Below are positions 1 to 22,200 of a stretch of DNA of 33,001 bases, piece after piece; position 1 is the first letter of the stretch, and each line of letters starts with the position of its first letter. Below the pieces are notes generated by a model. That model was not told where the DNA came from. It saw only the letters and a program-made list of their open reading frames with translations, and ran no database searches. This stretch comes from a virus (lineage: Duplodnaviria > Caudoviricetes), in IMG/VR virus record IMGVR_UViG_3300032229_000638, positions 1 to 33,001 of that record. One strand, written 5' to 3'. Made by a program: the position numbers and the translations under genes.

Positions 1-2
1 AC

Positions 3-30
3 TTGACAAGTCTGTGTTCTCGACTAGATT
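3..30 (+). promoter_or_regulatory. sigma70-type promoter (TTGACA-16 bp-TAGATT)
   Basis: Perfect -35 TTGACA at 3-8 and -10-like TAGATT at 25-30, upstream of ORF 76..264. Confidence 0.6.
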
Positions 31-75
31 ATACATGTATCGAGATCTCGATACACATACACACATCTAGACGCC

Positions 76-264
76 ATGGAAACCGCATTCGTCACTCCCA
101 AAAGCCGTAAGGCGCACAATCGCTTTGCAAACCTGATGGATCATGATGACATGTGCATCATTGAGCAACATGCAGGCACACGTGTATTCCTAACATCATC
201 TAACGGTCGGAATCACTTCTGGGTTGATACAATTAGTGATCCAGACTGGGACATCGACTTCTAG
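76..264 (+). CDS. Small hypothetical phage protein (62 aa)
   Basis: ATG start, promoter upstream, terminator downstream; V-x-P-K-S-x-K-A-x-N-R-F-x-N-x-M...FWV...D-x-D-W pattern reminiscent of small cyanophage proteins. Confidence 0.8.
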   Translation: METAFVTPKSRKAHNRFANLMDHDDMCIIEQHAGTRVFLTSSNGRNHFWVDTISDPDWDIDF

Positions 265-281
265 GATACCACAAACAAAAC

Positions 282-308
282 AAAAGCGGGATTAATCCCG
301 CTTTTTTT
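282..308. terminator. Bidirectional intrinsic terminator
   Basis: Perfect 24-bp palindrome AAAAGCGGGATTAATCCCGCTTTT (282-305), T-run on the right, A-rich run on the left. Confidence 0.85.
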
Positions 309-333
309 CATATCTTTTTATAATTATTTTTAA

Positions 334-385
334 GCAGGTTCGGTGGCGATGTATTGTCGTCCGCAGGGATACCTCTCCCCTCATT
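334..385. ncRNA. Putative structured non-coding element, copy A
   Basis: Block-conserved with 2388-2438 (GCAGG, GGTGGCGA, CGTC, GGG, ACC, CCCCTCATT), compensatory stem changes, leftward -10 at 397-402. Confidence 0.5.
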
Positions 386-430
386 TGATTTCTTATAAAA
401 TAGCACAAATCCGGTCAGAATCCAGGACCG

Positions 431-491
431 TGTGCCAGTTCTTCTAGTGGCACAAAGCCCCTGGCGGTGGTCGGTTCTGGGGTGCCATCAT
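431..491 (+). promoter_or_regulatory. Early-type promoter: 24-bp palindrome 1 plus -10 (possibly also fires leftward)
   Basis: TGTGCCAGTTCTTCTAGTGGCACA (431-454); TG-c-CATCAT with -10 at 486-491, 31 bp downstream; minus-strand TG-c-TATTTT at 402-397, 28 bp away. Confidence 0.7.
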
Positions 492-534
492 TCCGTCAAC
501 GGCGCACCACCGACGCCGCAACCACCCCAGACCG

Positions 535-1008
535 ATGATCACTGCAACTTTCGACCAACTGGTTTCTGAAGCCATCGCTCGCCAAGTTGAGTCGTTTCTG
601 AGTGCACAAACCAGCGCCTACAATTTGTTCATGAAAGAACAACAACAGGAGCGCGATTATTTCATCGAACAAACCAAGATTGCAACTCCATTTAATCTCT
701 TCATGGTGTTGACTCTCACTGAAACTTTCGGTAAGGAAACTTCTCATGAGATTGTTTCTCTGCTGGATGAATGTCGGCAAATGGGTGATTATCACTATTT
801 TGTTGGTGCATACCAACTGATTGATCGTAACAATGTTGAGCATCGCCAACTGTTGCTCACTGCGAGTAAAGTTTACCGCTACAAATTTGGCAGCGGTAGC
901 AATCAAAACTCTCTGAAGTCTGAGATTAAATATGCTACAATGTGCCCCCATTGTGGTTCTCTCGCTTCTAAGATGGTCGATCGCCTGAAAGCAGAGGGTC
1001 TCTGGTGA
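535..1008 (+). CDS. Hypothetical early protein with C-terminal CPHC motif (157 aa)
   Basis: ORF directly behind palindrome promoter 1 and an ACCACCCC leader; stop codon lies inside palindrome 2. Confidence 0.8.
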   Translation: MITATFDQLVSEAIARQVESFLSAQTSAYNLFMKEQQQERDYFIEQTKIATPFNLFMVLTLTETFGKETSHEIVSLLDECRQMGDYHYFVGAYQLIDRNNVEHRQLLLTASKVYRYKFGSGSNQNSLKSEIKYATMCPHCGSLASKMVDRLKAEGLW

Positions 1009-1064
1009 CAATTTGTTAAGTGTCCACTGTGGGGGTGGCACGTGCCATCCCCATGCCCTATACT
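1004..1064 (+). promoter_or_regulatory. Early-type promoter: palindrome 2 plus -10 TATACT
   Basis: GGTGACAATTTGTTAAGTGTCCAC (1004-1027); TATACT at 1059-1064, 31 bp downstream. Confidence 0.75.
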
Positions 1065-1099
1065 ATGGGAGTCGTCAGGGGATCACCCCACACCACACC

Positions 1100-1843
1100 A
1101 TGCTGAACCTTTCCAACGGCAACGGCAAACTCGCCAACGACACTCTGATCTTTAATCTGCCGGCCGGCAAAACCTGCCCCGGTGCAATGTATTGCAAGTC
1201 TTTTGCTGTCGTTGATGATAACGGCAAGCGTAAGATTCAGGATGGAGAGTATACTGAATTCCGTTGTTTTGCTGCATCGTCTGAAGTACAATATGATGCA
1301 GTTTATAACAACCGTGCTCACAATCTGCAACTGATTGTTGATGCTCTGAAGAATGGATCTGCTGCTGATTTGATTCATGATTCCATCCAACACAATCGGA
1401 CTCGCAAGACTTCTAAAGTTCGCATTCATGAGTCTGGTGACTTCTTTTCTGGCGCTTATCTTGACGCTTGGATTGAAGTTGCAAACCGCAATCCTGATCT
1501 GAAGTTCTACTGCTATTCTAAGAGTTTGCAGTTCTTCTATCTTCTCAAGTTGCCTGCAAACTTCTACATGACCGCATCTTATGGTGGCAAGTTTGATTAT
1601 ATGATCGATGAAGGTTACTTCCCCCGTTATAGCAAAGTCGTCATGAATGAGGAGGATGCTGCTAACTTGGGTCTGGAAGTTGATCATGATGATTCACACT
1701 GTTTCGGTGAAAAACCGTTTGCACTGTTAGTGCACGGGACGCAACCTAAAGGTTCACTCTGGGGTGCGGCAATTCGTATCCGTCGCGCTGCAAACAAGTT
1801 CGGCGGATATAACAAAAAGAACCGCCAGACTGTGACAGTCTGA
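1100..1843 (+). CDS. GP88-family (radical-SAM-like, Cys-rich) protein, 247 aa
   Basis: Motifs FNLPAGKTCPGAMYC, FRCFAA, VRIHESGDFFS, YLDAW, FYCYSK match my recollection of phage GP88-domain proteins. Start moved from 1013 to ATG 1100 because the promoter lies inside the longer ORF. Confidence 0.75.
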   Translation: MLNLSNGNGKLANDTLIFNLPAGKTCPGAMYCKSFAVVDDNGKRKIQDGEYTEFRCFAASSEVQYDAVYNNRAHNLQLIVDALKNGSAADLIHDSIQHNRTRKTSKVRIHESGDFFSGAYLDAWIEVANRNPDLKFYCYSKSLQFFYLLKLPANFYMTASYGGKFDYMIDEGYFPRYSKVVMNEEDAANLGLEVDHDDSHCFGEKPFALLVHGTQPKGSLWGAAIRIRRAANKFGGYNKKNRQTVTV

Positions 1844-1891
1844 TAAGTGGCACAGGGGGGACTTCCATCCCCCCTTCCTGGCCTCTATACT
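1831..1891 (+). promoter_or_regulatory. Early-type promoter: palindrome 3 plus -10 TATACT
   Basis: TGTGACAGTCTGATAAGTGGCACA (1831-1854); TATACT at 1886-1891, 31 bp downstream. Confidence 0.75.
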
Positions 1892-1915
1892 GATCTCAGT
1901 TCACCACACCACCCG

Positions 1916-2176
1916 ATGAACTTCTCTGCTCTCACCCGTGCCGCCGTCCGCGCCACCCTGATTCAGAACGGTCCCCAAACCTGCTCCGCCATTGTGCGCG
2001 GCATGGGATTGGATCCTAAGCGTCACAAGGGCACCATTCACGCTATCATGGTAGACATGGAGCGGGACGGGATCCTAGATGCTACCCGATCCGATAATGG
2101 CAAGCGGGATGAATGGTTCATCCTGCCAGAGGCAATCCGTAAGCGTGACCGCCTGATCGCTGCCCTGATCGGATGA
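1916..2176 (+). CDS. Winged helix-turn-helix DNA-binding protein (FaeA/Z-alpha-like fold), 86 aa
   Basis: Helix-GPQT-helix-GL-helix-xExDGIL-beta wing ending in W; start moved to ATG 1916 behind the promoter and a CACCACACCAC leader. Confidence 0.7.
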   Translation: MNFSALTRAAVRATLIQNGPQTCSAIVRGMGLDPKRHKGTIHAIMVDMERDGILDATRSDNGKRDEWFILPEAIRKRDRLIAALIG

Positions 2177-2183
2177 TACAATC

Positions 2184-2212
2184 GGGGGGAGCATTCTCCC
2201 CCCTTTCTTTTT
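2184..2212 (+). terminator. Intrinsic terminator
   Basis: GGGGGGAG-CATT-CTCCCCCC followed by TTTCTTTTT. Confidence 0.85.
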
Positions 2213-2385
2213 AATCTAGTCTAGATTAATCTCGACTAGATTATTCGCATCATTCACACATTCATTCTATCAATCTAGTCTAGATCACACACATATCATA
2301 TAATCTAGTCTAGATCATATTATAATATCATATATTCATATTATCATATAACACTAGTGTTATATCATCTAGTTCATATAATTAC
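2213..2385. repeat. AT-rich tract with repeated CTAG palindromes
   Basis: AATCTAGTCTAGAT at 2213, 2272 and 2302; variant AATCTCGACTAGATT at 2228; perfect palindrome ATATAACACTAGTGTTATAT at 2346-2365. Confidence 0.8.
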
Positions 2386-2387
2386 GC

Positions 2388-2438
2388 GCAGGGTGGGTGG
2401 CGACCGTTTGCGTCAACGGGGCGACCCTGCCCCTCATT
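2388..2438. ncRNA. Putative structured non-coding element, copy B
   Basis: Homologous to 334-385; lies just downstream of the leftward promoter (TATAAT at 2457-2452). Confidence 0.5.
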
Positions 2439-2451
2439 CGCTTGTGTCCGT

Positions 2452-2511
2452 ATTATACGCATTGGAAATCCTGCAAAACCCGCATTGGTGGACAGTTTGC
2501 AAACTGGCACA
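2452..2511 (-). promoter_or_regulatory. Inverted early-type promoter: palindrome 4 plus -10 TATAAT
   Basis: Minus strand TGTGCCAGTTTGCAAACTGTCCAC (2511-2488) and consensus TATAAT 30 bp downstream (2457-2452). Confidence 0.7.
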
Positions 2512-2612
2512 AGACCGAATCGAACGCATCTGCCATCCTAGCACGTCCCCCGTCCCCTGCACAATCCCCCCTGCCCATAAGATTCCCTGATCGTTTCTTA
2601 AGATTTTCTTCC

Positions 2613-2670
2613 TGGCATTTGGCGCCGGTGTGCGCCACACTTGCCGCAGGTTCGATCCCTGCCATGCCTG
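2613..2670 (+). other. tRNA-like element (T-arm plus partial acceptor stem, only one further hairpin)
   Basis: GCAGG-TTCGATC-CCTGC at 2646-2662; GGCAT (2614-2618) pairs with ATGCC (2664-2668); GGCGC-CGGTGT-GCGCC hairpin at 2621-2636; too short for a canonical tRNA. Confidence 0.35.
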
Positions 2671-2773
2671 CCCTGCTGCTGATGCCCGATCCCGTCGCAT
2701 CTGAGAATCAATCCGAATGTGAAGCAAACCTAAAGGGTCGCCTGCCCGATTCTCATGAGATCGCCACTGAGAC

Positions 2774-2832
2774 TGTGCCAGTTTCTGAACTGTCCATTCA
2801 GACACGCTGGCGGGGTCGATCCCTGGCAGACT
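2774..2832 (+). promoter_or_regulatory. Early-type promoter: palindrome 5 plus extended -10
   Basis: TGTGCCAGTTTCTGAACTGTCCAT (2774-2797); TG-g-CAGACT with -10 at 2827-2832, 29 bp downstream. Confidence 0.65.
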
Positions 2833-2885
2833 GAGCACAGCGAAGGGGAGAGATCCCTGACGCAATCCAAACCACACCTAAGATC

Positions 2886-3182
2886 ATGACCGTCACCTAT
2901 CACGTTCCGACCGCAGATCAGTTCCGTCTGTTGAGCGTTGCGGTTGATTCCAGTGCTATAGCCCGTCTGGCAATTGTGCTGGATAATGATAACATCCCCC
3001 ATCTGTTGGTGATGTTTAACAGCAACCCAGATAAAGTTTACCGTTATATTTTTGAGGATGAGGGTGCTGCTCATCGTTGGCACGAATTGCTGAACGATGA
3101 TGATGCAAAGGCAGCAACATCATGGGGGTATGAGTTTAATCGTGCACTGAAGCATGGTGACATCGAAACGATCGACGTTTGA
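2886..3182 (+). CDS. KTSC-like domain protein (98 aa)
   Basis: SSAI...L-x-V-x-F...Y-x-Y...S-x-G-x-x-FN pattern typical of KTSC domains; ACCACACC leader. Confidence 0.6.
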   Translation: MTVTYHVPTADQFRLLSVAVDSSAIARLAIVLDNDNIPHLLVMFNSNPDKVYRYIFEDEGAAHRWHELLNDDDAKAATSWGYEFNRALKHGDIETIDV

Positions 3183-3189
3183 TCACATC

Positions 3190-3217
3190 GGGGGGACAAT
3201 TCTCCCCCCCATTCTTT
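3190..3217 (+). terminator. G/C-run hairpin (weak terminator or processing/stabilising stem)
   Basis: GGGGGGA-CAATTC-TCCCCCC followed by an interrupted T tract. Confidence 0.5.
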
Positions 3218-3241
3218 CCACAAACCACACCTAATCTGATC

Positions 3242-3379
3242 ATGCTCGGCTTTACAATCCGTTTCCAATCTCCCTACAATTCTTGTGAATGGAGAACGCA
3301 AACGTTTCCTACACTTGATGAGGCAGAACGTATGGTTGCGTTCTATCTTACTTGTGGTGTTCGTGCACATTTAATCTGA
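3242..3379 (+). CDS. Small hypothetical protein (45 aa, MLGFTIRFQSPY...)
   Basis: Start reassigned from 3179 to ATG 3242, which carries the ACCACACC...TGATC-ATG leader. Confidence 0.7.
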   Translation: MLGFTIRFQSPYNSCEWRTQTFPTLDEAERMVAFYLTCGVRAHLI

Positions 3380-3415
3380 TACCAATTCTTTACACTCTCA
3401 AACCACACTTTGATC

Positions 3416-3583
3416 ATGGAAATGTATCTCACCCCTGATGAGATTCTGCAACTGGTGACAACCGGTGTTTGCACTCTCACTGATGATCTGATGATCAGAT
3501 TAACGCCTAATGTATCAGAATCTTATGAGGATTCTGATTGGTACAATGATCCAAACAATGTGATGAGTAAATATCACTATTGA
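3416..3583 (+). CDS. Small acidic hypothetical protein (55 aa, ends WYNDPNNVMSKYHY)
   Basis: Translated by hand (below the ORF-track cutoff); ACCACACT-TTGATC-ATG leader. Confidence 0.7.
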   Translation: MEMYLTPDEILQLVTTGVCTLTDDLMIRLTPNVSESYEDSDWYNDPNNVMSKYHY

Positions 3584-3588
3584 TGATC

Positions 3589-3726
3589 ATGAAACGTTAC
3601 TTTTCTCTGCTCATTGTGATGTTATCATTGTGGGCAACACTTCTCTCTCACATTGTCATTCAAGCGGAGCAGAATCTAAAACAGTATGATGCTCAGTTTG
3701 CAAAGATGGCCCGTGGTATAAAGTAA
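3589..3726 (+). CDS. Small membrane or secreted protein (45 aa)
   Basis: Translated by hand: MKRYFSLLIVMLSLWATLLSHIVIQAEQ...; basic N-terminus plus hydrophobic stretch; in-frame alternative ATG at 3583 overlaps the previous stop. Confidence 0.6.
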   Translation: MKRYFSLLIVMLSLWATLLSHIVIQAEQNLKQYDAQFAKMARGIK

Positions 3727-3731
3727 CTGAT

Positions 3732-3828
3732 GCACAGTTAGTTACACTTTACTGGGGGATCATAGGGTCGTGGTGTGGTGCCTTACTCTCTACAGATCCC
3801 CCTCTAAAGTGTAACTAACTCACTGTGC
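3732..3828 (+). ncRNA. Long hairpin, candidate antisense/regulatory RNA
   Basis: Perfect 15-bp arms AGTTAGTTACACTTT (3736-3750) / AAAGTGTAACTAACT (3806-3820); 8-bp GGGGGATC/GATCCCCC; apical GTGGTGTGGTG (3770-3780) complementary to the early-gene leaders. Confidence 0.5.
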
Positions 3829-3883
3829 CAGTCACCGGACTGTCCACCGGCCCCCTGGCATCCCGGCAATGATGCCCTATGAT
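3824..3883 (+). promoter_or_regulatory. Early-type promoter: palindrome 6, CTGGCA-17 bp-TATGAT
   Basis: TGTGCCAGTCACCGGACTGTCCAC (3824-3847); -35-like at 3855-3860; -10 at 3878-3883, 30 bp downstream. Confidence 0.75.
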
Positions 3884-3937
3884 ATGAACAAGCGGGGGGG
3901 AGAGATCCTCACCGCCAAACCACACCCGAGACCCATC

Positions 3938-4195
3938 ATGCTCACCGCTGAAACGTGTTTCAAGTCCCCTGAGTTCATCACATTTTGTGAGGAAGTAGAG
4001 CGTGAATGTGAGAAAGTATTTTCCAACAATTATGCTTCACCTTCCTACTGTTTTGATGATGGTTGGCAACTCGAATTGATTCTGGAATTGTATAACAATG
4101 GTTGTCCGATTCCTGATGCTGTGAATGAAATGTGTGAGGGTATTGAATCTGAGGCAATTGATGCCTATTTGTCTACTCCACCCTGGGATCGCTGA
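3938..4195 (+). CDS. Acidic hypothetical early protein (85 aa)
   Basis: Start reassigned from 3869 (inside the promoter) to ATG 3938 after the ACCACACC leader; very Glu/Asp-rich. Confidence 0.75.
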   Translation: MLTAETCFKSPEFITFCEEVERECEKVFSNNYASPSYCFDDGWQLELILELYNNGCPIPDAVNEMCEGIESEAIDAYLSTPPWDR

Positions 4196-4204
4196 TTCAC
4201 ATTT

Positions 4205-4232
4205 AGGGGGAGACAATCCTCCCCCTTTCTTC
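4205..4232 (+). terminator. G/C-run hairpin (weak terminator or processing/stabilising stem)
   Basis: AGGGGGAG-ACAATC-CTCCCCCT followed by TTCTTC. Confidence 0.55.
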
Positions 4233-4258
4233 ACTCTAACCACACCGCAATTCTGATC

Positions 4259-4573
4259 ATGACAACCGCAACCCTGAACGGCAATCCTACAATCAAGTGG
4301 GAGTATTCTGGTCTGGAAGATACAGTTAAGGTGCTGATGATGATCAACCGCAATGGTCACCAGAACGCCGAAACAATGGCATCCTACATTAGAACAATCG
4401 CCTACAATTATGCTTGCAAGTGTGAATGTTATGGTGAGCGTCCTTCGATGACAGGAACTGGCGGCTGGTACGTTACACTTATCGCAGATGAATCGGAGGA
4501 TTATGATTATGTTGCTGAGGTCACTCTGATGCCTTATGTTGTTGCAAAGCACCTAGGATTAAGGGAGGTTTGA
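4259..4573 (+). CDS. Hypothetical early protein (104 aa)
   Basis: ORF with ACCACACC...TGATC-ATG leader. Confidence 0.8.
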   Translation: MTTATLNGNPTIKWEYSGLEDTVKVLMMINRNGHQNAETMASYIRTIAYNYACKCECYGERPSMTGTGGWYVTLIADESEDYDYVAEVTLMPYVVAKHLGLREV

Positions 4574-4580
4574 TATACTT

Positions 4581-4615
4581 TAGGGGCGGCAGTTGTTTAT
4601 ACTCTGCCGCCCTTA
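4581..4615 (+). terminator. GC-rich hairpin closing the early region
   Basis: GGGCGGCAG (4584-4592) / CTGCCGCCC (4604-4612); poor U tail. Confidence 0.5.
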
Positions 4616-4801
4616 TATTCGTTCGTGCGTTATAGCAGTTCCCGCCGTGTTTGGGGGCGCCCGTATAAAAACCCATGACTCCCCTAACCTACAAAGTGTT
4701 ACGGACGCGATCGATCTATAAGACTCATATCATTTCAAAAAACCGGGGGCCAAAATTTATGATAAAATACCTTATGATCTAAAAAATTTTCCCAGAAAAA
4801 A

Positions 4802-5050
4802 ATGGCCCGTAGACCTCAACCAACATATCGCCCCCAGAACATGTGCTGGTCATGTTGGTACACATGGTATCCGCGTGGCAAAGATTATTCACTGAGATGT
4901 CCCAATTGTGGATCATCGAGAACTGGACCTGATATCACACTATTCATTGTACTACTTGGACTGGTCGGGATATACTTTGCAATTGCATACTGGTATATTG
5001 TAATACCTGCATGGATCTTTCTATTTTTGATTTCCAAAATTGCAAAATAA
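4802..5050 (+). CDS. Zn-ribbon plus transmembrane small protein (82 aa)
   Basis: CWSC...CPNCG then a long hydrophobic C-terminal segment. Confidence 0.7.
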   Translation: MARRPQPTYRPQNMCWSCWYTWYPRGKDYSLRCPNCGSSRTGPDITLFIVLLGLVGIYFAIAYWYIVIPAWIFLFLISKIAK

Positions 5051-5314: not shown

Positions 5315-6076
5315 ATGGCTAAAGGATTTACTGTTAAAGCAAAAGCACCGGTTGCACCAAAGCAACAATCTGAGGAGTGGGATTATGATTTAGCACGAGA
5401 AATGATTCGTGGTAAGTCCGTTGTATTCTGTCTTCCTGGAAGAGGTGTTTCATATACGTTTTTAAAGAGTTTTGTACAACTTTGTTTTGATCTTGTACAG
5501 AACGGAGCTAATATTCAAATCTCGCAAGATTATTCCTCGATGGTTAATTTTGCACGTTGCAAGTGCCTTGGTGCGAATGTTCTTGCAGGTCCTGATCAGA
5601 TTCCCTGGCAAGGTAAACTGGCATATGACTATCAACTCTGGATTGACTCTGACATTGTGTTCAATTCCGAGAAGTTCTTCCAACTCGTTCTGTTAGATCA
5701 AGATATTTCTGCAGGTTGGTATTGCACTGAAGATGGTCACACAACTTCTGTTGCACACTGGTTGGAAGAGGATGACTTCCGTAACAATGGTGGAGTCATG
5801 AATCATGAAACTCTGGAGAGCATTCAGAAGCGTCGTAAGCCTTTCACGGTTGACTACACTGGTTTTGGATGGCTTCTGATTAAGAAGGGTGTCTTTGAGC
5901 ATTCTGAGATGAAGTATCCTTGGTTTGCACCGAAGATGCAAGTTTTCGAATCTGGGCAAGTACAAGACATGTGTGGTGAAGACGTTTCTTTCTGTCTCGA
6001 TGCAAAAGATGCAGGATTCGAAATCTGGTGCGATCCACGCATTCGTGTTGGTCATGAGAAGACTCGCGTAATCTGA
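5315..6076 (+). CDS. GT-A fold (GT2-like) glycosyltransferase, 253 aa
   Basis: WIDSDIVF (DxD), GFGWLLIKKGVFE, GEDVSFC and IWCDPRIRVGH motifs. Confidence 0.8.
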   Translation: MAKGFTVKAKAPVAPKQQSEEWDYDLAREMIRGKSVVFCLPGRGVSYTFLKSFVQLCFDLVQNGANIQISQDYSSMVNFARCKCLGANVLAGPDQIPWQGKLAYDYQLWIDSDIVFNSEKFFQLVLLDQDISAGWYCTEDGHTTSVAHWLEEDDFRNNGGVMNHETLESIQKRRKPFTVDYTGFGWLLIKKGVFEHSEMKYPWFAPKMQVFESGQVQDMCGEDVSFCLDAKDAGFEIWCDPRIRVGHEKTRVI

Positions 6077-10220: not shown

Positions 10221-13200
10221 ATGATACAAACTGGGTTTGACACTAGAATTAAAGTACAGCAGATAATTGAGAATCAACTTCCGGAATTTATAATTGATGA
10301 AAATCCAAATGCTTCTGAATTTTTAAAGCAATATTATACTTCACAGGAGTATCCTGGAGGAACAACGGACATTGTTGAAAATTTAGATCAATATTTAAAA
10401 ATTGATGTTTTAAGTTCTGGCGTAATTGATAACACAACCAAACTATATTCTGGAATTTCTTCAACTACAACAGAAATTACTGTTGCATCAACTAAAGGAT
10501 ATCCACAAAAATATGGATTATTGAATATTGGTAATGAAATAATCACATACACTGGAATTGCAGGAAGTACTTTCACCGGATGTATTCGTGGATTTAGTGG
10601 CATTACCAGTTATCATAGTCCAAATGACCAAGAAGAATTAGTTTTTTCAACTTCTAGTAGAAATCCTCATGCTGTTGGGACAGCAGTTACAAACTTAAGT
10701 GCACTATTTTTAAAGGAATTTTATAAAAAAACTAAGTATTCTTTTGCTCCAGGATTAGAAAATGTTGACTTTATTTCACAATTAAATGTTGCTAATTTCA
10801 TAAAGAGTGCAAAGGAATTTTATCAGTCAAAAGGAACTAAAGAATCTTTTAGAATTTTATTTAATATTCTTTATGGAGTTAGTCCAACTGTATTAAACCT
10901 AGGAGAACTTCTAATTAGACCATCTGCAGCTTCTTATTTAAGAAGAGAAGAAGTTGTTGCGGAAAGAATATCTGGTGATCCTTCTAAAATTGTAGGTCAA
11001 ACAATTGTAAAATCTACCGATCCCGCAACCACAGCGTCAGTATCTCAGGTTGAAATTTTTACCGCAGATAACAAGCAATATTATAAACTTTCTTTATTCG
11101 TTGGTTATGAAGAAAGTTCTGCAATTACTGGTACTTTTACAATTCCGGGTAAAACAAAAGTTGTAGAAAAGGTTTCAATTGGATCTTCAGTTGTTACTGT
11201 AGATTCAACCATTGGTTTCCCACAATCCGGAACTTTGATTTGCAATAAAAATATTATCAATTATTCTGATAGAAGTATTAATCAGTTCTTTGGATGTTCT
11301 GGTATTACGAGTTCTATTCTTCCATCTGATGATATTCGTATTAATGAAACCGTTTATGCGTATGAAGATGGTGATCTTTCAAGAAAAGTAGAATTAAGAA
11401 TTACGGGTGTTTTATCTGGATTTGTTCAAGAAACAAATAATATTTCTATTAGCGAAAATGAAGAAATTTTTGTTAAAAACTTAGGGCAAATTATTACTAA
11501 TGCTCAAGATTCTAACAAAGACTATAAAAATATTTTTGCAAATGCTTGGATTTATAATACTAGTTCTAGATATAAAATTAGTCAAATTAGTGGTTCAACA
11601 TTTACTCTTTCTAGTAAAATTGATAAATCAAGTTTAAAAGAAGGGGACAAAATAGAAATTTTATTTAGAGGTACTGAAAATCTAGCATCTTCTATCCTAA
11701 ATGAACCATTTATTCAAAGTATAGATGCTGCAAATAATCAAGTTATCATCGGAAATAATGATGGATTTGTTTATAATCAAAATCTTGAATATGATTTGAG
11801 AAGAAAAGTAAGCACTGTAAAAAGTAGTGGAGCACCTATTGAATTTGGAAATAATCTTTTAACTTCTGATATACAAAATGTTTATGTCGATGATCAGCAA
11901 AATCAAATTTATGTGGCATCTGGAAGTCTGCCATCATATACAATAGAAAAAAATCTTTTTAAATCAATTATTCCAGAAGCCACTGGTTCAAAAAGTCAAA
12001 GTGAACAAGGAAAAGGATATTTACAAGGATTTGAAGATGAATCTCAAACATTTTCAATAATTTCATTCCCAGATCCAGTTCCATTTATTCGTGGAGATGA
12101 AGTTTTTTATATTCCAGAATCAAAAACAATACCACTTTTAGATAGTGGAGAAATTTATTATGTCGATGTAATATCATCAAACAAAATTAGACTTTATAGA
12201 TCAAGATCCTTAGTAGGATCTTCAGAATATGTAAAATTTAGATCTCTCGATGCTAAAACTGGTTCTCAAACTTTTATTTTAAATTCCCAAAGATTTCAAT
12301 TTATTTCTTCTCAAAAACTTTTAAGAAAATTTAATTTGAATCAAAATACGGAAAGTACTGGAGAAGAAACTAAATCTGGAACTGTCGGTATTTTAATTAA
12401 TGGTGTAGAAATTCAAAATTATAAGTCTGATGACAAAGTTTATTATGGTCCATTAACATCCGTTAAAGTTTTAAATGGTGGAAAAGATTATGATGTTATT
12501 AATCCTCCCGTACTAGAAGTTACTACAGGAACAGGAGTTACTGCATTAATTCAACCAGTTTTAGAAGGATCCGTAAAAAATATTTTAGTTGATCCACAAG
12601 ACTTTGATTTAAATACCGTCGTTTCTGTTGCTGTTACTGGAGGTAATGGAACAGGAGCTCTTTTACAACCTATTATTCAAAAAAGAAGAAGAGAAGTATC
12701 TTTTGATGCTAGACAAATTAGTGGTACTTCTGGTGGTTTGGATATTAACAATGACACTATTACATTCTTAACCAATCATAATTTTAATACAGGAGATTCT
12801 GTAATTTATGATTCCAATGGAAATAATCCTATAGGTATAGCAACAAATTATTCAAATACTTTTGATCAAGGCATATATCTTGCCTCTAATGGAATTTATT
12901 ACATTTCAGTAGTAAATAACAAAACTATTCAATTATTTAATTCAAAATCAAATGCCATTGCTGGTGTCAATACTGTTCCTTTTTCAGTAGCTAACAATAA
13001 TGGTATTCATAAATTCAAATCAGGAGTAATTAGAAATACTATTAGTGAAATTAAAGTAATTAATGGTGGAACTGGATATACTAATCGTAAATTAATTGTA
13101 AAACCTTCTGGTATTTCTACATTTAATCACACTGTTAATTTTATAAATCATGGATTTAATGAAAAAGATTTAATTGTTTACAATTATGAAACTAGTCAAA

Positions 13201-16200
13201 TTTCTGGGTTGTCAACATCAGTATATTATTATGTCTCTAAATTGGATGAAGATTCTTTTAGATTATACAATGCAGGATTGGGAGGAACTGATGCAACCAA
13301 CTATTCTAGAAAAAGTAATGTACTTTTTACTGGAATAGGATCAGGATATCAATATTTTAGTTATCCACCAATTACTGTTACAGCTAATATTGTTCCAGTA
13401 GGAATAGGATCTTCTACACCAACTTCATTAACAGCAACAGCATCTGTAAGGGGAAAAATTATTGATGTTTATTTGTATGAAAATGGTACTGGATATGGAT
13501 CAAATATCCTGAATCTGGAGAAAAAACCACTGATCAAAGTTAAAAAAGGATCTGATGCAAAATTTACTCCAGTTGTAATTAATGGAAGAATAGAATCGGT
13601 CAATGTTGCTTATGGTGGATATAATTATTATTCTGTTCCAGATGTTGAAGTTCAGGGAACTGGAGATGGTTGTATTGTTAGACCAGTAATTAAAAATGGA
13701 AAAATTGTAAGTGCAGTAGTGGTTAATCCCGGTTTTGGATATACTGCTAGCAATCTTAGTTTTAAAATTACACCTGCAGGGTCTGATGCGGTTTTTGAAG
13801 CATCTGTCAGATCACTGACAGTTAACTCTAATTTTAAATATGGTGATGAAGTTATTATAAAATCTCAATACAACAGAAACTTAGAATATAGTGTATCTGG
13901 TTACTTTGATAAACTTAAAACCAATTTTAATGACACTAATCAAAATAATCATTCTCCAATAATTGGATGGGCTTATGATGGAAACCCAATTTATGGACCT
14001 TTTGGGTATTCAGATCCAAAAGATACTGGATCTTCTGTAAAGATTATTAATTCTGGTTATGAATTAAATGCATCAAATATTATTGATAGACCATCTGGAT
14101 TTGATGCTGGATTCTTTGTTGAGGATTATATTTTTAGAAATAGTGGAGATCTTGATGAATCTAATGGAAGATTTACAAAAACTCCAGAATTTCCCAGCGG
14201 TGTCTATGCATATTTTGCTGGAGTTACTACTAGTGCAACAGTAAGCAACGAGTTAATAAGTCGGTTCCCTTATTTTATTGGAAATAAATTTAGATCAAAG
14301 TTTATTCAAGATAATCTTATCTTAACTCAAGAATATGATTTTAATAATTCAAATTTAATCAGAAATACTTTTCCATATAAATTAAACGATTCTAATGCTT
14401 CAAATGATTTTATTATTGAATCAGCAAAGAAAATACCTCAAAAATGCGTTGTAAAATCAGTAACTAAAGGATCAATTGAAAATCTCAGAATAATTAGTGC
14501 TGGTCAGGATTATAAAATAGGAGATTTGATTGATTTTGATAATTCATTTACTGGTGGTGGTGGATTAAGTGCAGAGGTATCAAAAATTGAAGGAAAAGAT
14601 ATCTTTAGAATTAACACAAATATACAAAACTATAATAATGCAATTGTTACTTGGGAAAATGAAAATCAAGTTAGAGTTAATATTCTTCCTGCACATAATT
14701 TAATTCAGAATGACAATGTTATAATTTCTGGATTAACTACTAATATTGGCAGTATTAATGGATTTTATAATATTGGATTTAGTTCTTATTCAACATCAAT
14801 TGCTAAAACTGTAAGTGCATCTCCATCTGCTGGACTAGTAACAGATATTTACTTCTTAAGTCTTCCACCAAAAGTTACAATTGGTAGTAGTATTTCAATT
14901 GGAGTAGGAACTGATATATTCAGAGTTTTAAATATATTTCCTGAACAAAAAGTTATTAGAACTCAAAGAATTAATGCTGGAGCAGCACTTTCTGCAACAA
15001 CATTTGCTGGATTTACACCAAATTCTTTTGTAGTTAATAAAAAAACTAATTATTTTGAATCAAAATTAAATGATGTTGTATATTTCAATCCTTTGGAAAC
15101 TGTGGGATTTGGAGTAACAACCACTGTTGGTATAACTTCAAATACTACATTTGTATTTGCTGGATTAACGACAATTAGATCAATTCCTTTAAGATCAATT
15201 TATATTGAAAATCATCCATTTGTTGATAATCAACAAGTTACAATTAGTTTGCCTGATAATTCATATTCTCCATTATCAGTATCAACTTCTTTTGGCGGAT
15301 CGGTATTTACTATTCCATCTGGTTCAATTTCAACAACAGTTTATATTGCAAATAAAACTAAAGATACAATTGGAATTAGAACTCAATTAAATTCTCCAGA
15401 AGTATTTTTCTCTCCAAATACTTCTGGAACCTTTAATAGTTATTTTTATTCTTTAACTTCGAACTTTAAACAATCTTTAGGAAAAGTACAAAAAATTCAA
15501 GCAGTAGTTTCTACAGCCACCACACATGGATTAACTGACGGTGATAGTATTGATCTATTTGTAACACCCAATCTTTCTGTTGGTATTGGAACTTCCACCT
15601 CAGTAAAAATTAGATATGATTCTTCCAGACAAAAAGTTTTAGTTAATCCTTTAACTTTTGGGAGTGCAGGTATTAATACCCTTTCAGATACTATTACTAT
15701 TAGATCTCATGGATTTGTAACTGGAGATAAAGTTGCATATGTAGGTATTTCTACCATTGCTGCACCTACAGGCATTACTACAAGTGATTATTATGTATTG
15801 AAAATTGATGATGATACTTTCCAATTGTGCCAAACCTATAATGATACCCAATCTAATCCACCATCAATAATTGATATACAAGATCAAGGGGGTGCACTAC
15901 AACAATTATCATTAATCAATCCTCAAATTTCTGTAATTAAAAATAATGATTTAGTTTTTGATGTAAGTCATCCATCTCTTAGAGGTTACAATCTTAAGTT
16001 TTACTATGATAATGCATTCAAAAATGAATTTGTATCTATTGGAAACACCACTATTTTTGCAGTCTCTGGTGTAGGTACTATCGGAGTATCAACCAATGCT
16101 CAAGTTAAATTAAGATATTCCTCTGGAATGCCAGTTTACTTGTACTATAATTTTGAAAAGTCTGGTTTTATTAGCACAGCAGATTCTGATGTTTCTAATT

Positions 16201-19200
16201 ATTCTAAGATTTTATTTGTAGATAGTTCTTATACTGGTACATATTCAATATCTGGTGTTGGAAGTACAAACACATCCTTCAATATTTCTTTACCGCAAAT
16301 TCCAGAAAAACTTTCCTATACTCCTTCAGAATGTGATGATTTATATTATAGAACTAGATCAAGAACAGCTTCTGGTTCAATTTCTTCATTAAAAATACTT
16401 TCCGGTGGAACAAATTATAAAAAAGTTCCGAATTTTAATACTGTAATCTCCGAAAAAGGAAGTGGAGCATATATTGTAGCAGAATCTAATAAAATTGGAA
16501 GAATTAATCAAGCATTAATTATAAATGAAGGATATGATTATCCTTCAGATAGCACATTGTCTCCAACGGCATTTATTCCACCATCTGTTATATTATCATC
16601 TTCAAATATAATTAAAAAAGTTGATGTTGTTAATAGTGGAAAATATTATTCGGTAGCTCCTGATTTAATTTTAATAGATTCAGATACTAATCAAAAAATT
16701 AATAGTGGACTATTAAAAGCAACTGTAAATGCCAGTGGAGTAGAAAGAGTATCTATTGTTGTACCACCAACTGGAATTCCGGATACAGTTCCAAAAGTAG
16801 TTGCTATCAACAATTCAAACGGAGTAAGTATTGATAGAGTTGTAACTTCTGGAACTGGAATTGTAACTTGTTATCTAACTACTCCAATATTAGGATTTTC
16901 AACTGTTCCATTTACAGTAGGAGATTTAGTATTTGTTGAGAATATTCAACAATACAGTAGCGGAACAAGAGGATATAACTCTACAGATAACAACTATCAA
17001 TTCTTCACAGTTACAAGATATTTAAATACTAACCCAGCTCAATTAGAATACACAATTTCAAACATTGGATCAAATCTAGGGATTGCAAAAACAGCACAAG
17101 ACTCACTCGCCTCAATTATAAAATATTCAAATTATCCACAATTTAAAATTACTCAAGAACCAGCAAAATTCCTAATAGGCGAAAAATTACTTGTTAAACC
17201 GCAAAATGAAAATTCTCTCATAGAAAGAAATCTATCAGTAAGTATTTCTGAAAATAATTTTATTAAGGTTATTGGTACATATGATCTATCGATTGGTGAT
17301 CTAATTTTTGGTAAAACAACAGGATCTACTGCTGTAGTAAATGATGTTAAATCTAATTCGGGAAAATTCACTCTAAATTATTCCGCCAGTAAAGAACTTG
17401 GATGGTCCGATAACACTGGAAAAATTTCAGAAGATTTTCAAGTTATTGCAAATAATGATTACTATCAGGATATGGCTTATACAGTTAAAAGCCCTATCCA
17501 ATTTAAAGACTTAATAACTCCTGTTAATAATCTATTACATACAAGTGGTTTGAAGAATTTTGCAGATACTGGAATTACATCTTCTTATAAAACTGCCTTA
17601 ACTGGAGTTACAACTGCTTTTGCACTAATTGATATTAAAAATTTAAATAGAGTAGATACGATTAATAACTTTGATTTAGTGGTTGACTATAATATAGTAA
17701 ATGGAAAATCTAATTTTGTAAAACTATTGAATAAAAAATTACAAAGTTTTATTCAATGTTCTACAAACAGAGTTTTAAGAATTGATGATATAAGTTCCCA
17801 ATTCTCAAGTTTAGGATTGTCAGTTTCTGATCAAAATAATATTGCTGAGATTTTATCAAATGATACTTATGATAGATTTTTAGTACAGATTATTGATACA
17901 ACTAAAAAACAGTTTCAATTTACTGAAATAGTTACATTAAATAATCTCTACGGTCAAGGTAATTTTGTAGATCTCGAAAAATCAACATTAACAAATGGAC
18001 CAAAAGTTGGAAATCTATATGCATTTACAGATGATCTAGGAAATAATTATCTAAGATTCGATCCGACAGATTCTTACAATTATGATTATGATATTAAAAT
18101 CTTAAGAAATAATTTTTCATCCGTTTTTTCTGGTATTGGTAGTACATCAGTTGGATTTGTAAATCTTCTTGCAACAAACAAAATAGTTACTTCTGGAATT
18201 ACAACTGCAATTGTATCTATTGCTACTACTGTTCCAGTCACCATTCATGCAGCATCTCAAGTCATAAATGATGTTACATCAGAAATGGATTATGTTGAAA
18301 TTTATTTAATATATGATGGATCTGATACTTATATTGCAAATTATTATTTTAATTCAAACACAAATAGATGGAATTTTTCATTCGGAAATCTAGGATCTTT
18401 CTCTGCATCATCTGATGCCAATTATGTTTATTTAAATTATCAAAATAATAGTGGTAGACAAAATACGGTTAGAACAAAAGTAGTAAGTTATGGATCGACT
18501 ACAGGATTTTCTGGAATTTCAACATATAGATTTATTAATAGTGGACAAATATCAGGATTAGAAAGATCTGCAAGATATGAATCAAACTATTCAATCGTAT
18601 CTGCAGCATCTACAATTCTATCATTTAATAGTGATGATATTTCCTGTGTTAAATCTTCAGTTCAGGTGAGTGTTGGATCAACTTCTGTTCTACATCAAGT
18701 CATGATGTTACATGACAACATTGATACCTATGTTTTGCCTTATGAGTATTTGTCAGTTAAAAATGTATCAGGAATTGGAACATTTGGTGGATCTTTAAAT
18801 GGATCAACTGCGAATTTAGAATTTTATCCAGATTCAGAATTTATTGGAAGCAATATCAACATTCAAACATTTAGTGAAATCCTTTATACTGATGTTGATA
18901 GAGAAAATACTTATCCAGATTTAAATTATGGTTCAATAATAGAATCAATATCTCCATCACAATTTTCTGGAGTTAATGGATCTAGGGTTAATAAAACAAA
19001 CTTTACTTTAAAGTATAAAGATACTCCTATTTTTGAAAAAGTATTTAATCCCACAGATAGTTCTGTTTTAGACCCATCATCTGGACTCTTTATATTTAAT
19101 GACCACTTCTTTGTCACTGGTGAAGAAATTAATTACCTCCCAACTTCAACTTTCTTAGGTGTTGGTGCAACGGCTATCGGAATTGGTTCTACATCTAATT

Positions 19201-22200
19201 TTGCAGGAATTGTAACTGATAAACTTCCACCAAAAGTTTATCCCATTAAAGTTACAAATGACACTTTTAGATTATCTACAAGAAAAGATTATGCTTTAGC
19301 AGGAATTTATGTTACATTTACTTCTTATGGATCTGGAAATGCCCATAAGTTGACAATGAATAAGAAATTGGAAAGAACTATAATTTCTATTGATGGAGTA
19401 GTTCAGTATCCAATTGCATTTAGTCCGATTAATTTTAATCTTAATAGTAATGGTGGATCTATAAGTGTTGCAACTACTTATTTTGCTTTAACGGGTATTT
19501 CATCAATTAAACCAAATGATATATTAAAAGTTGATGATGAATATATGAGGGTTATAAATGTCGGATTTAGTAGTTATTCTACTGGTCCAATTACAGGACT
19601 AGGAACTATTCCTGTAGTTAATGTTTCAAGAGCATATGTTGGATCTTCTGCAACTTCTCACTTCGATGGTGTAAATGCAAGAATTTATAGGGGATCTTTT
19701 AATATAGAAGGGGGGCAAGCTTATTTTACTTCTCCCCCATTAGGAAATATCTTAAGTAAAACTGATAAGAGTAATCTTGTTCCTGCTAAATCTACTTTTG
19801 ATGGAAGAGTATATTTGAGAAGTGATTATTCAACAAATCAAATATATGATAATATTTCTGACCAGTTTACTGGAATTGGTCAAACATATAGATTAACGGT
19901 TCAAGGTATTAATACTACAGGATTAGGAACTATTGGTGGTAATGGAATTTTATTCATTAACGATTTATTCCAAACACCATCAACAGTTAATAACACTCTC
20001 AACAATTTCTCAATTCAAGAAAATGCAAATATTGGTATCACAAGTGTCGTATTTACTGGAATAACTTCAGATAATGGTCAATTAGTTAGGTCTGATTATG
20101 ATGTAAATGCGAATCAATTACCAAGAGGTGGTGTTATTATTTCTTTAGGTTCAACTGATGGTATTGGTTATGCACCACTTGTTGGGGCAGCAATAACTGC
20201 AACCGTAGATGGTGTTGGTAGAATTACTTCTATTGGAATTGGAACAAGTGGAAGTTGGGGATCTGGTTATAATTTTTCTGGATCAATTGGAATTGGAATT
20301 TCTGATGATTATCACTCTCTGCAACCAGGATCTCTCCCGGCACTTATAACTGCAAATGTTGGTGCTGGTGGTACATTAATTTTTAATATTCTTGCTCAAG
20401 GTGATAGATATACACCTCAAGCTAGATTCCAAATTCCATCACCAAGTTATTCAAACTTACCAGTAAATATTATTTCAAGACTTTCAACGGGAACAACTAG
20501 TATTTCTGGTAGAGGTTTACTTTTAGATGTTTCTGTTGCAGCTGCAACAACTGCAGTTGGTGTTGGATCCACTTATTTCGCTGTAGAATCTTTCAAAATC
20601 GTAAGGCCTGGATATGCTTTCGAAAGAGGTGATATTTTAGAACCAGTTGGTCTAGTAACTGATAGTAGACTTGCTGCTCCATTATCTAAGTTTAGACTAA
20701 CTGTTCTTGATACATTTACAGATTCATTCTCATCATGGCAATTTGGAGATTTGGATTATATTGATTCGGTTAAAATTTACCAAGATGGTGTAAGAACTAG
20801 ATTTCCACTTTATTATAATCAACAACTTCTAAGTTTTGAAGTTGACCAAAATAATCCAGATTCATCAAAAATTGATTTAAATGCGGTTCTTCTTATTTTT
20901 ATTAATGGAGTAATTCAAGATCCAGGTGTTGCTTATGAATTCAATGGAGGTTCTTCATTTACATTTGTAAATGCTCCACAACCTCAGGACAATATATCAA
21001 TTTTCTTTTACAGAGGAACGAGAAATGTTGATAGTAAACAAGTTTCTGTTCAGGATACAGTAAAACCTGGAGATATTATACAAGTATTTAAAAATGATAC
21101 CGTCTCTGCAATTACAACAAGTCAAAATCCTAGAGTAGTTTTTGATGTTCCAGCTTCCGATAAAGTACAAACAAATGTTTATACTGAATCTGGAATTGAT
21201 ACCAAGTTGTACAAACCGATAAGTTGGACTAAACAAAAAGTTGATCAACAAATTAATGGTCAAGTTTTTTATAAAGTTAGGGATTCTATTGAATCTGAAG
21301 TATATCCAACAGCAAAAATTATTAGAGATTTATCATCTTCTGATTCAATAGTATATGTTGATGATGCTAATTTCTTCAACTATGAATATAATTCCACTTT
21401 AATTCCTATTAATAATTTTGATGGATTAATTGTATCTGGAATGGCAGATCCTGTTTCTGCCGCCTTAACTGCTACTGTTGATCCAGATACTGGATCAATC
21501 TCCACATTAACAATTAATAATATCGGTTCTGGATATACTGGTTCCAGTTTAAATCTTATTATTGGTTCCCCCATGACCATAGGAACAGGGATTGGTACAA
21601 CTGCAACAGCAATTGCAGGAATTACAAATGGATCTTTAAATGGAACTATAACCATTACTAATCCAGGTCTTGGTTATAGTTCAACCAATCCCCCAGTTGT
21701 TTTTACAGCGCCTCCTGCAACATCTTATGAAAACATTAAAGGAGTTACAAGTTTACAAGGATTCTCTGGAATTATTACTGGAATAGGAACAACTTCTGGA
21801 ACATTGGGAAATCCTTTGGCTTTAAGATTCTTCTTAAAAACATCTGCAAATACACCTTTCCCATCTGGTCTAGCAACAGGATTCCCAATTTGTATCTTTG
21901 ATACCACTATCGGTAATGGATTAACTTCTATTGATAGCAGTAACTCTACTATTGTTGGTATAGGTACATCATTCTTAAATAATATTTACAATATTCACTC
22001 GTTTGCATATCAAGGTACTACAAATGTCAATGCTGAGATTATATGTAACATTGATTCAAGAACTTCCATTGTGGGAATAGCAACAACGGGAAATAATCTT
22101 GGTAGATTCTCATGGGGTGTATTGAGAGGATTCTCTAGATCAAATTATCCAATATCAATTGCTGTAAGTGGTTATACAATTAATTCTGGTTTAACTACTT

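Follow-up and report, generated by a model that had tools for sequence, protein, structure and literature searches.

The small RNA GcvB depends on Hfq and is not a single long hairpin. It is reported to silence ACA translation enhancers (PMC3879156). Among phages, the c4 RNA of P1 and P7 is described as a ~77-nt molecule of three stem-loops and two loops, with a 5' end made by RNase P and a function in lysogeny and immunity (PMC5320573). For the repeated SAS motif of Cluster K mycobacteriophages, the paper describing it leaves open whether it is bound by RNA or by protein (PMC3203893), and Yfr2 is reported to bind the small RNA Yfr1 through a G/U-rich motif (PMC2190773, PMC6778093, PMC2662882, PMC6974561). 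Marine T4-like cyanophages are described as having early, middle and late gene classes without the MotA/AsiA middle system of T4 (PMC5780444), and for the phage sRNAs discussed in one review the targets are genes or sRNAs of the host, or else individual phage transcripts (PMC12197685).

Here we describe a long hairpin, in a T4-like cyanophage, whose loop carries the reverse complement of a sequence shared by the leaders of several neighbouring genes. The element is real, conserved, uncatalogued and RNA-like, and comparison with relatives lends good support to its predicted anti-leader role.

The hairpin locus and its leader matches

The window, that is the whole 33,001-nt stretch analysed (IMG/VR record IMGVR_UViG_3300032229_000638, positions 1 to 33,001), belongs to a T4-like cyanophage, of whose genome it is a fragment. 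Small genes of no assigned function form a cluster that is followed by baseplate wedge genes and an S-adenosylmethionine decarboxylase gene, and the baseplate region holds very long ORFs (10221-22265, 4014 aa; 23859-31055, 2398 aa). By the GP88-like protein encoded at 1100-1843, the nearest cultured relative is the Synechococcus phage S-SRM01 (76% identity).

Positions 3732-3828 fold as RNA into a single unbranched hairpin, present in one copy in the window, at -49.7 kcal/mol (z -7.5; 0 of 200 shuffles equally low), and its arms (3736-3761 and 3795-3820) are the longest inverted repeat in window positions 1-5000. The first-pass annotation of this DNA had given a hairpin of ~97 nt with perfect stems of 15 and 8 bp; the length and the 8-bp stem stand, and the longer stem has 16 bp. 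Between the two lies a CT/TC 2x2 internal loop, the C-C mismatch of which is common to the hairpin family described below. The outer 5' arm opens with a GTTAGTTACAC repeat that is also found after the ends of S-SRM01 genes.

3589-3726 (+): ORF, the last before the hairpin; no Pfam or PHROG match
3732-3828 (+): long hairpin, candidate RNA (from RNA fold and inverted repeat)
3736-3751 (+): outer 16-bp perfect stem, 5' arm (partner 3805-3820)
3752-3753 (+): CT/TC internal loop, 5' side (opposite 3803-3804)
3754-3761 (+): inner 8-bp perfect stem, 5' arm (partner 3795-3802)
3770-3780 (+): seed GTGGTGTGGTG (from alignment of relatives and leader complementarity)

The seed had been called only weakly G-U paired. 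G-U pairing alone does not describe it: a 3-bp helix holds part of it, the ensemble has G3772-G3773 paired with C3781-C3782, and 4.6 kcal/mol are needed to open 3770-3780.

The reverse complement of the seed core, ACCACACC, occurs eight times in the window against 0.53 expected, a count that none of 100 shuffles reaches. Seven copies are on the plus strand and one is on the minus strand; the latter, at 3772-3779, is the hairpin loop, the window's only reverse copy. Six plus-strand copies (1092, 1903, 2871, 3224, 3919 and 4239) lie 0-12 nt before a start codon, each tagging a leader, the seventh (6380) falls just within an ORF, and 3402 is a 7/8 variant. Recomputation upheld both longer matches claimed earlier for the reverse complement of the seed, 11/11 at 1902-1912 and 10/10 at 1091-1100 with the A of ATG included. 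The predicted targets, all on the plus strand, are as follows.

1091-1102 (+): leader and start codon of the GP88-like gene 1100-1843 (12-bp duplex, one G-U)
1902-1912 (+): leader of ORF 1916-2176 (11/11)
2871-2878 (+): leader of ORF 2886-3182
3224-3231 (+): leader of ORF 3242-3379
3402-3409 (+): leader of ORF 3416-3583, a weaker predicted target, ACCACACT
3919-3926 (+): leader of ORF 3938-4195
4239-4248 (+): leader of ORF 4259-4573

When opening costs are counted, the seven tagged early leaders take ranks 1-7 among 26 start regions (-13.6 to -6.2 kcal/mol), and 11 of the 26 form no duplex. Three of these start regions (3586, 5095 and 7219) were set a few bases off, within a scanned range that covers the starts anyway. 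Raw duplex energies do not discriminate, because the G/U-rich loop pairs with any C/A-rich leader. The leaders of the tagged small genes are short and A/C-rich and carry no Shine-Dalgarno-like run; the genes themselves are presumably early, as judged by position and promoter form.

The hairpin begins 6 nt past the stop codon of ORF 3589-3726. The operon proposed to have the element at its 3' end, 2886-3726, contains a terminator-like hairpin (3190-3209), so that transcription into the element would need read-through. The small genes are preceded by a pseudo-palindromic motif, which is followed after ~31 nt by a -10-like hexamer; a good -35 is mostly lacking.

431-454, 1004-1026, 1831-1854, 2774-2796 and 3824-3846 (+), 2489-2511 (-): copies of the pseudo-palindromic motif

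This motif is probably an activator site and possibly serves two directions. The copy at 2774-2796 is likely the promoter of unit 2886-3726, which would read into the hairpin, and the copy at 3824-3846, overlapping the hairpin's 3' end, is likely a promoter element of ORF 3938-4195. Identity of the motif with CGRE1/GntR was considered and dropped, as the sections of PMC6191309 on it give no match and do not mention phages. A late promoter is no more than a weak lead: TATAAAGT stands at 3717, some 8 nt ahead of the hairpin, but the late-type sites of the window read TAAATA.

Other repeats accompany these promoters. On the minus side of the palindromic motif lies a repeated non-coding unit, the plus strand of which starts with GCAGG followed by GTGGCGA; it resembles a short backward-facing transcript without an ORF.

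Window 335-410 and 2385-2460; L136:14247-14320 and 15798-15880; L019:9136-9215; L002:6195-6260: GCAGG/GTGGCGA unit (L numbers denote related loci)

Clusters of palindromic repeats of the TCTAGTCTAGA and TCTCGACGAGA types, iteron-like and located in the early region, lie among A/C-rich spacers in the window (15-33, 2212-2318) and in many related loci.

A hairpin family in related phages

Related loci were collected from several directions. Among the best 80 of 89 loci retrieved by the GP88-like protein, those with several tags typically hold one reverse copy, and this copy lies within a long hairpin. Three contigs of 93-141 kb likewise have tags clustered in the early region and one reverse copy. 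Scanning IMG/VR with the 18-letter loop pattern RGTCAGTGGTGTGGTTWA yielded 55 loci in 35 distinct contexts, and all 55 fold with 28-42 pairs around the seed, while looser patterns rarely pass the same kind of folding test (5/44, 4/44 and 1/119).

Conservation of the seed amid covarying stems, which the first-pass annotation had asked to be checked, was found in these relatives. Across 26 distinct relatives, paired cells make up 98.6% of the stems and GTGGTGTGGT is invariant while the stems covary; 7 of 17 stem pairs have changed on both sides, with 53 such cells against 13 in shuffles. Kinship alone can beat shuffles, so the weight is carried by the types of pairs and by slid controls, which reach at most 42% paired. 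All aligned relatives of the GTGGTGTGGT type share the first 10 nt of the window seed without change.

The window copy stands at some distance from this family. A model built from the 26 relatives with the window excluded (R1) scores it at 12.6 bits (E 3.1, 11th of 16 matches), and also misses loci L178 and L067. Kinship therefore rests on the seed with its GTC flank, the 3'-arm match CTCTACA, the C-C mismatch (24 nt 3' of the seed in the window, 22-24 in the family, and itself the anchor of that family search, which 112 loci satisfied) and position: in the window as in its relatives, the hairpin belongs to the same early module and follows relatives of ORF 3242-3379 at a distance of a few hundred bases. 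We read the window copy as a diverged homologue or a re-built equivalent of the family. One near-identical copy, in L178, differs at 2 of 97 bases, which together turn one G-C pair into C-G (3758 with 3798). A strict pattern found no further copies of the window type, a looser one (44 loci) found L178 and two family members, and a metagenome scan found none in 119 loci of about 210 estimated.

In the cultured phage collection, blastn returned no match to the element, only a 41-nt piece for the 2-kb region and only short unrelated matches for the L019 hairpin. The whole S-SRM01 genome has no seed match and no hairpin, and 30-kb stretches of Sf-FR1 and B3 contain no hairpin of this kind.

Hairpin and tags occur together. 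Set one comprised 83 loci found by protein without regard to the seed (69 without duplicates, 51 with at least 4.5 kb downstream), and there at least two tagged leaders were present in 9/10 hairpin loci versus 4/41 others. Set two, the best 80 of 200 by alignment of ORF 3242-3379 relatives, left 44 loci once duplicates and short ones were removed; at least two tagged leaders occurred in 22/22 loci with the hairpin and 0/22 without it. The loci are kin, and some contigs belong to both sets. The hairpin label requires six changes on a GP88-like protein tree with 53 rows, and five independent tree pairs gave 4.4 concordant and 0 opposite contrasts with a median p of 0.125, which is not significant, rests on one mosaic early gene and comes from a number of pairs that cannot reach significance. 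There are exceptions in both directions: L002 keeps hairpin and seed with no ACCACACC leader in its 24.5-kb contig, and L012, L038, L059 and L064 have 2-3 tagged leaders with no hairpin in the stretch examined. S-SRM01 nests among hairpin carriers on the tree, lacks the hairpin and the exact tag, and has two leaders that match 11 nt of the family loop. Two strict hairpin scans miss the window's own hairpin, so diverged copies can escape detection in loci counted as having none.

One phage has a changed loop. Three hairpin scans blind to the seed found other seeds only in L364 (a one-base variant) and in L067, whose hairpin stands in the same gene neighbourhood and likewise consists of an outer stem, an internal loop (CT/CC), an inner stem and an open apex, but shows a different loop sequence. 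The plus strand of L067 has three copies of CACCACAG, all 4-6 nt ahead of an ATG, and a single reversed copy lies in the hairpin loop; the loop has a 12-nt perfect match to one leader, and its best target lies just downstream of the hairpin. Against the leaders of the window, L019 and L364 this loop matches 6.1-7.0 nt, compared with 8.1-9.4 for loops of their own type; across all seven L067 leaders the gain is slight (7.4 for the own loop, 6.9-7.1 for foreign loops). The change is known from one phage (1/44 matches). Co-variation of seed and leaders is seen in L067, where both have changed, and fails at fine scale: for the window's leaders the mean longest match is 9.1 nt with the loop of relatives and 8.1 nt with the window's own loop, and a search for base-level co-variation beside the core saw none.

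Several further features mark the surroundings of these hairpins. Repeats of TTCTTTATAC and CACTGTTTGAG flank the hairpin in tandem or inverted arrays (L019:10770-11140, L090, L098, L364:3640-3910), and TATAAAGAA/TTCTTTATA, which in part form the hairpin arms, are present in 34/34 set-two loci with a hairpin and rare in the others. In L091, L014 and other relatives, an inserted short lysine-rich ORF separates the ORF 3242-type gene from the hairpin. L003, which has no seed hairpin, carries another long hairpin (5635-5741, 40 pairs, -43 kcal/mol) with a loop unrelated to the tag.

Proposed mechanism and competing explanations

We consider the chances somewhat better than even that the element encodes a trans-acting, plus-strand antisense RNA that dampens the translation of the early genes together. 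Most of the comparisons requested in the first-pass annotation agree with its reading, which they support in part. We infer expression, processing, direction of effect and timing as follows. Read-through of transcription begun at the early promoter near 2774-2830 would give rise to the RNA, which would be trimmed or cut to a stable hairpin, its interrupted long stem perhaps serving as an RNase III substrate or as a shield. The apical zone of 20-27 nt would open cheaply and form an 8-12-bp duplex over the A/C-rich leader, once over the AUG. As the leaders are without a Shine-Dalgarno-like run, the A/C-rich tag is probably a ribosome landing site, and covering it would repress. A stable RNA accumulating from the early operon would provide delayed negative feedback and hence early-gene shut-off, so that the hairpin may act as a feedback timer. 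We know of no mechanism for the switching off of early genes in marine T4-like cyanophages. If the proposal is true, a widespread phage group would possess a new level of timing, in which a single RNA is directed at a tag shared by many early messages of the phage itself. The tag, the seed and their natural variants (L067, L002, S-SRM01) offer a ready set for compensatory tests. A bolder version, which we regard as rather doubtful, is a lock-and-key arrangement in one lineage of these phages: every early message would bear the tag, and a hairpin RNA with a swappable loop would be the master off-switch and, as loop and tag vary from lineage to lineage, also a means of excluding superinfecting kin with the same tag.

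It is unlikely that the hairpin works in cis only, processing, stabilising or terminating at the end of the early operon, with a loop that is an inverted leader copy of no trans role. Such a reading fits its start so close to a stop codon and its arms made of repeats common in such regions. Also, read on its minus strand, the window element resembles a defunct early promoter with a leader, and the apical zone of the window finds a 14/14 match in a leader of L364, which makes an origin of the seed by leader inversion plausible. Template switching can produce paired stem changes without selection, which also counts in its favour. However, a cis-only role leaves unexplained why 10 loop bases are invariant amid stem turnover, why hairpin and tag co-occur and why the loop of L067 has changed, and mismatches and wobbles persist in the stems.

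We give no better prospects to a decoy, either a minus-strand RNA or extruded single-stranded DNA, that would present ACCACACCAC in an open loop and titrate a leader-binding protein; the minus-strand form had already been raised in the first-pass annotation. The minus strand folds nearly as well as the plus strand in the window (-47.1, z -7.4) and in L019 leaves the motif in an open 27-nt loop; DNA folding of the hairpin is likewise far beyond shuffles, and the co-occurrence with tags fits a decoy equally. Moreover, 15 distinct relatives have a -35-like TTGAC(G/A) element aimed back at the hairpin from 99-444 nt downstream, so the minus strand may be transcribed too; in S-SRM01 the element precedes a minus-strand HNH gene placed where relatives carry the hairpin. 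Against this, the plus strand of 25 distinct stems has 23 G-T versus 3 A-C appositions (8 versus 2 by distinct position-type, 5 versus 0 in the inner stem), and it folds better than the minus strand in L019, L067 and L093. The window lacks the back-pointing element, its minus-strand hexamer is without the final T present in the region's -10 boxes, and the change in L067 would require a matching change of protein. Together, wobble pairs and fold modestly favour the GUGGUGUGG (plus) strand as the one that would act.

The TTGAC(G/A) element has features of its own. It is a minus-strand element with an atypical -10 (L002:7721, L019:11176, L099:2327, L364:4038, L136:17192 and others), and its plus strand often has AACCA(C/T); in L364 the element matches 10 nt of that phage's variant seed. 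A minus-strand minigene, which the window would read as tag-ATG-MIPQ-stop, was rejected, as 24/32 copies examined have no ATG there.

A host-directed function, in which the RNA would sponge Yfr1/Yfr10 or repress C/A-rich host leaders and the phage leaders would copy a host signal, seems to us improbable. It draws on the 8-nt match of CACACCAC, which adjoins the core motif in many cyanobacterial Yfr1 genes, and on L002, which keeps the seed without targets of its own. The seed nevertheless misses the ultraconserved Yfr1 core ACUCCUCACAC, the bases after the core vary in picocyanobacteria, and a count of ACCACACCAC in 31 picocyanobacterial-family genomes shows no enrichment (241 matches versus 332 for the reversed control). 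Separately, a host-family contig (L571, G029:C206) has near 171-181 a stretch resembling the AACCACAGACACC type of phage leader, with hairpins and a GGTGTGAGGAG motif next to it; this may be an sRNA of the host or the remnant of a phage.

Most improbable of all is superinfection exclusion as the main role, with the first phage's stable RNA silencing the early messages of same-tag relatives arriving later: it would account for L002 (RNA kept, tags lost) and L067 (both changed), and P1 c4 acts in immunity (PMC5320573), but an RNA made in the early region would hit its own messages first, and exclusion is in any case compatible with the dampening of early genes proposed above.

Comparison with described systems

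No Rfam family reached its gathering threshold in the window, where the lowest E over 3600-3950 was 2.7, and five related loci gave only a tRNA. No description of this element came up in the literature searched; the sole match for ACCACACC together with cyanophage concerns, by its title and the start of its abstract, UV resistance. T4-like cyanophages likewise have non-coding RNAs, namely CfrI, wcaG, manA, glnA, abiF and PhotoRC-II. None of these matched in Rfam scans of the window or the related loci, and in the sections of the two accounts that deal with them no RNA is presented as antisense to early leaders, CfrI being a cis-antisense RNA at psbA (PMC9964418, PMC12197685).

The region resembles the PeSL cassettes of T4-type phages in having modules of repeated promoter, short G/C stem-loop and leader between small variable genes; PeSL stem-loops are described as short, repeated and upstream of a sigma-70 promoter (PMC4122927), whereas the hairpin here is single-copy and ~97 nt and carries the reverse of the leader. 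The hairpin is thus no PeSL cassette, and it is the neighbouring short G/C hairpins that are PeSL-like. With Yfr2 it shares a G/U-rich seed, which matches 8 nt beside the Yfr1 core reported for some hosts. Unlike Yfr2, the phage loop is without the GAGGAG needed for the Yfr1 core, and its seed is at the hairpin apex, where Yfr2 uses a free 5' end. The element bears no unpaired motif complementary to ACUCCUCACAC at its 5' end and has no Rfam match that would place it in that family.

Closer in layout is SAS, described as a non-palindromic repeat a few bases before many starts, in one orientation, as here, with four genomes that have a single copy on the other strand, again as here (PMC3203893). 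SAS differs in being a 13-bp motif with a Shine-Dalgarno core, in phages of another host phylum, and its reverse copy is not described as a hairpin RNA in the part of that paper devoted to it (PMC3203893).

c4 resembles the proposed hairpin RNA in being encoded by a phage, presumably excised from a longer transcript, and able to pair through its loops with translation-start regions of the phage's own mRNA (PMC5320573). The loop studied here is complementary to the phage's own translation-start regions in the same manner. It has neither the three stem-loops P1-P3 of c4 nor a match to Rfam C4; the T4-like phage studied here has a single hairpin without branches, whose one seed has six to seven separate predicted targets. 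GcvB is reported to be similar in that one RNA has many targets and recognises an A/C-rich translation-enhancing sequence upstream of the start codon (PMC3879156). The G/U-rich seed complementary to several A/C-rich leaders reproduces this likeness, at the level of complementarity only, and comparison of sequence and structure through Rfam gave no homology to GcvB. GcvB is host-encoded and governs an amino-acid regulon, whereas the predicted targets of the hairpin are the phage's own early genes. The best reading is that the hairpin RNA would work like GcvB and P1 c4, yet belongs to neither.
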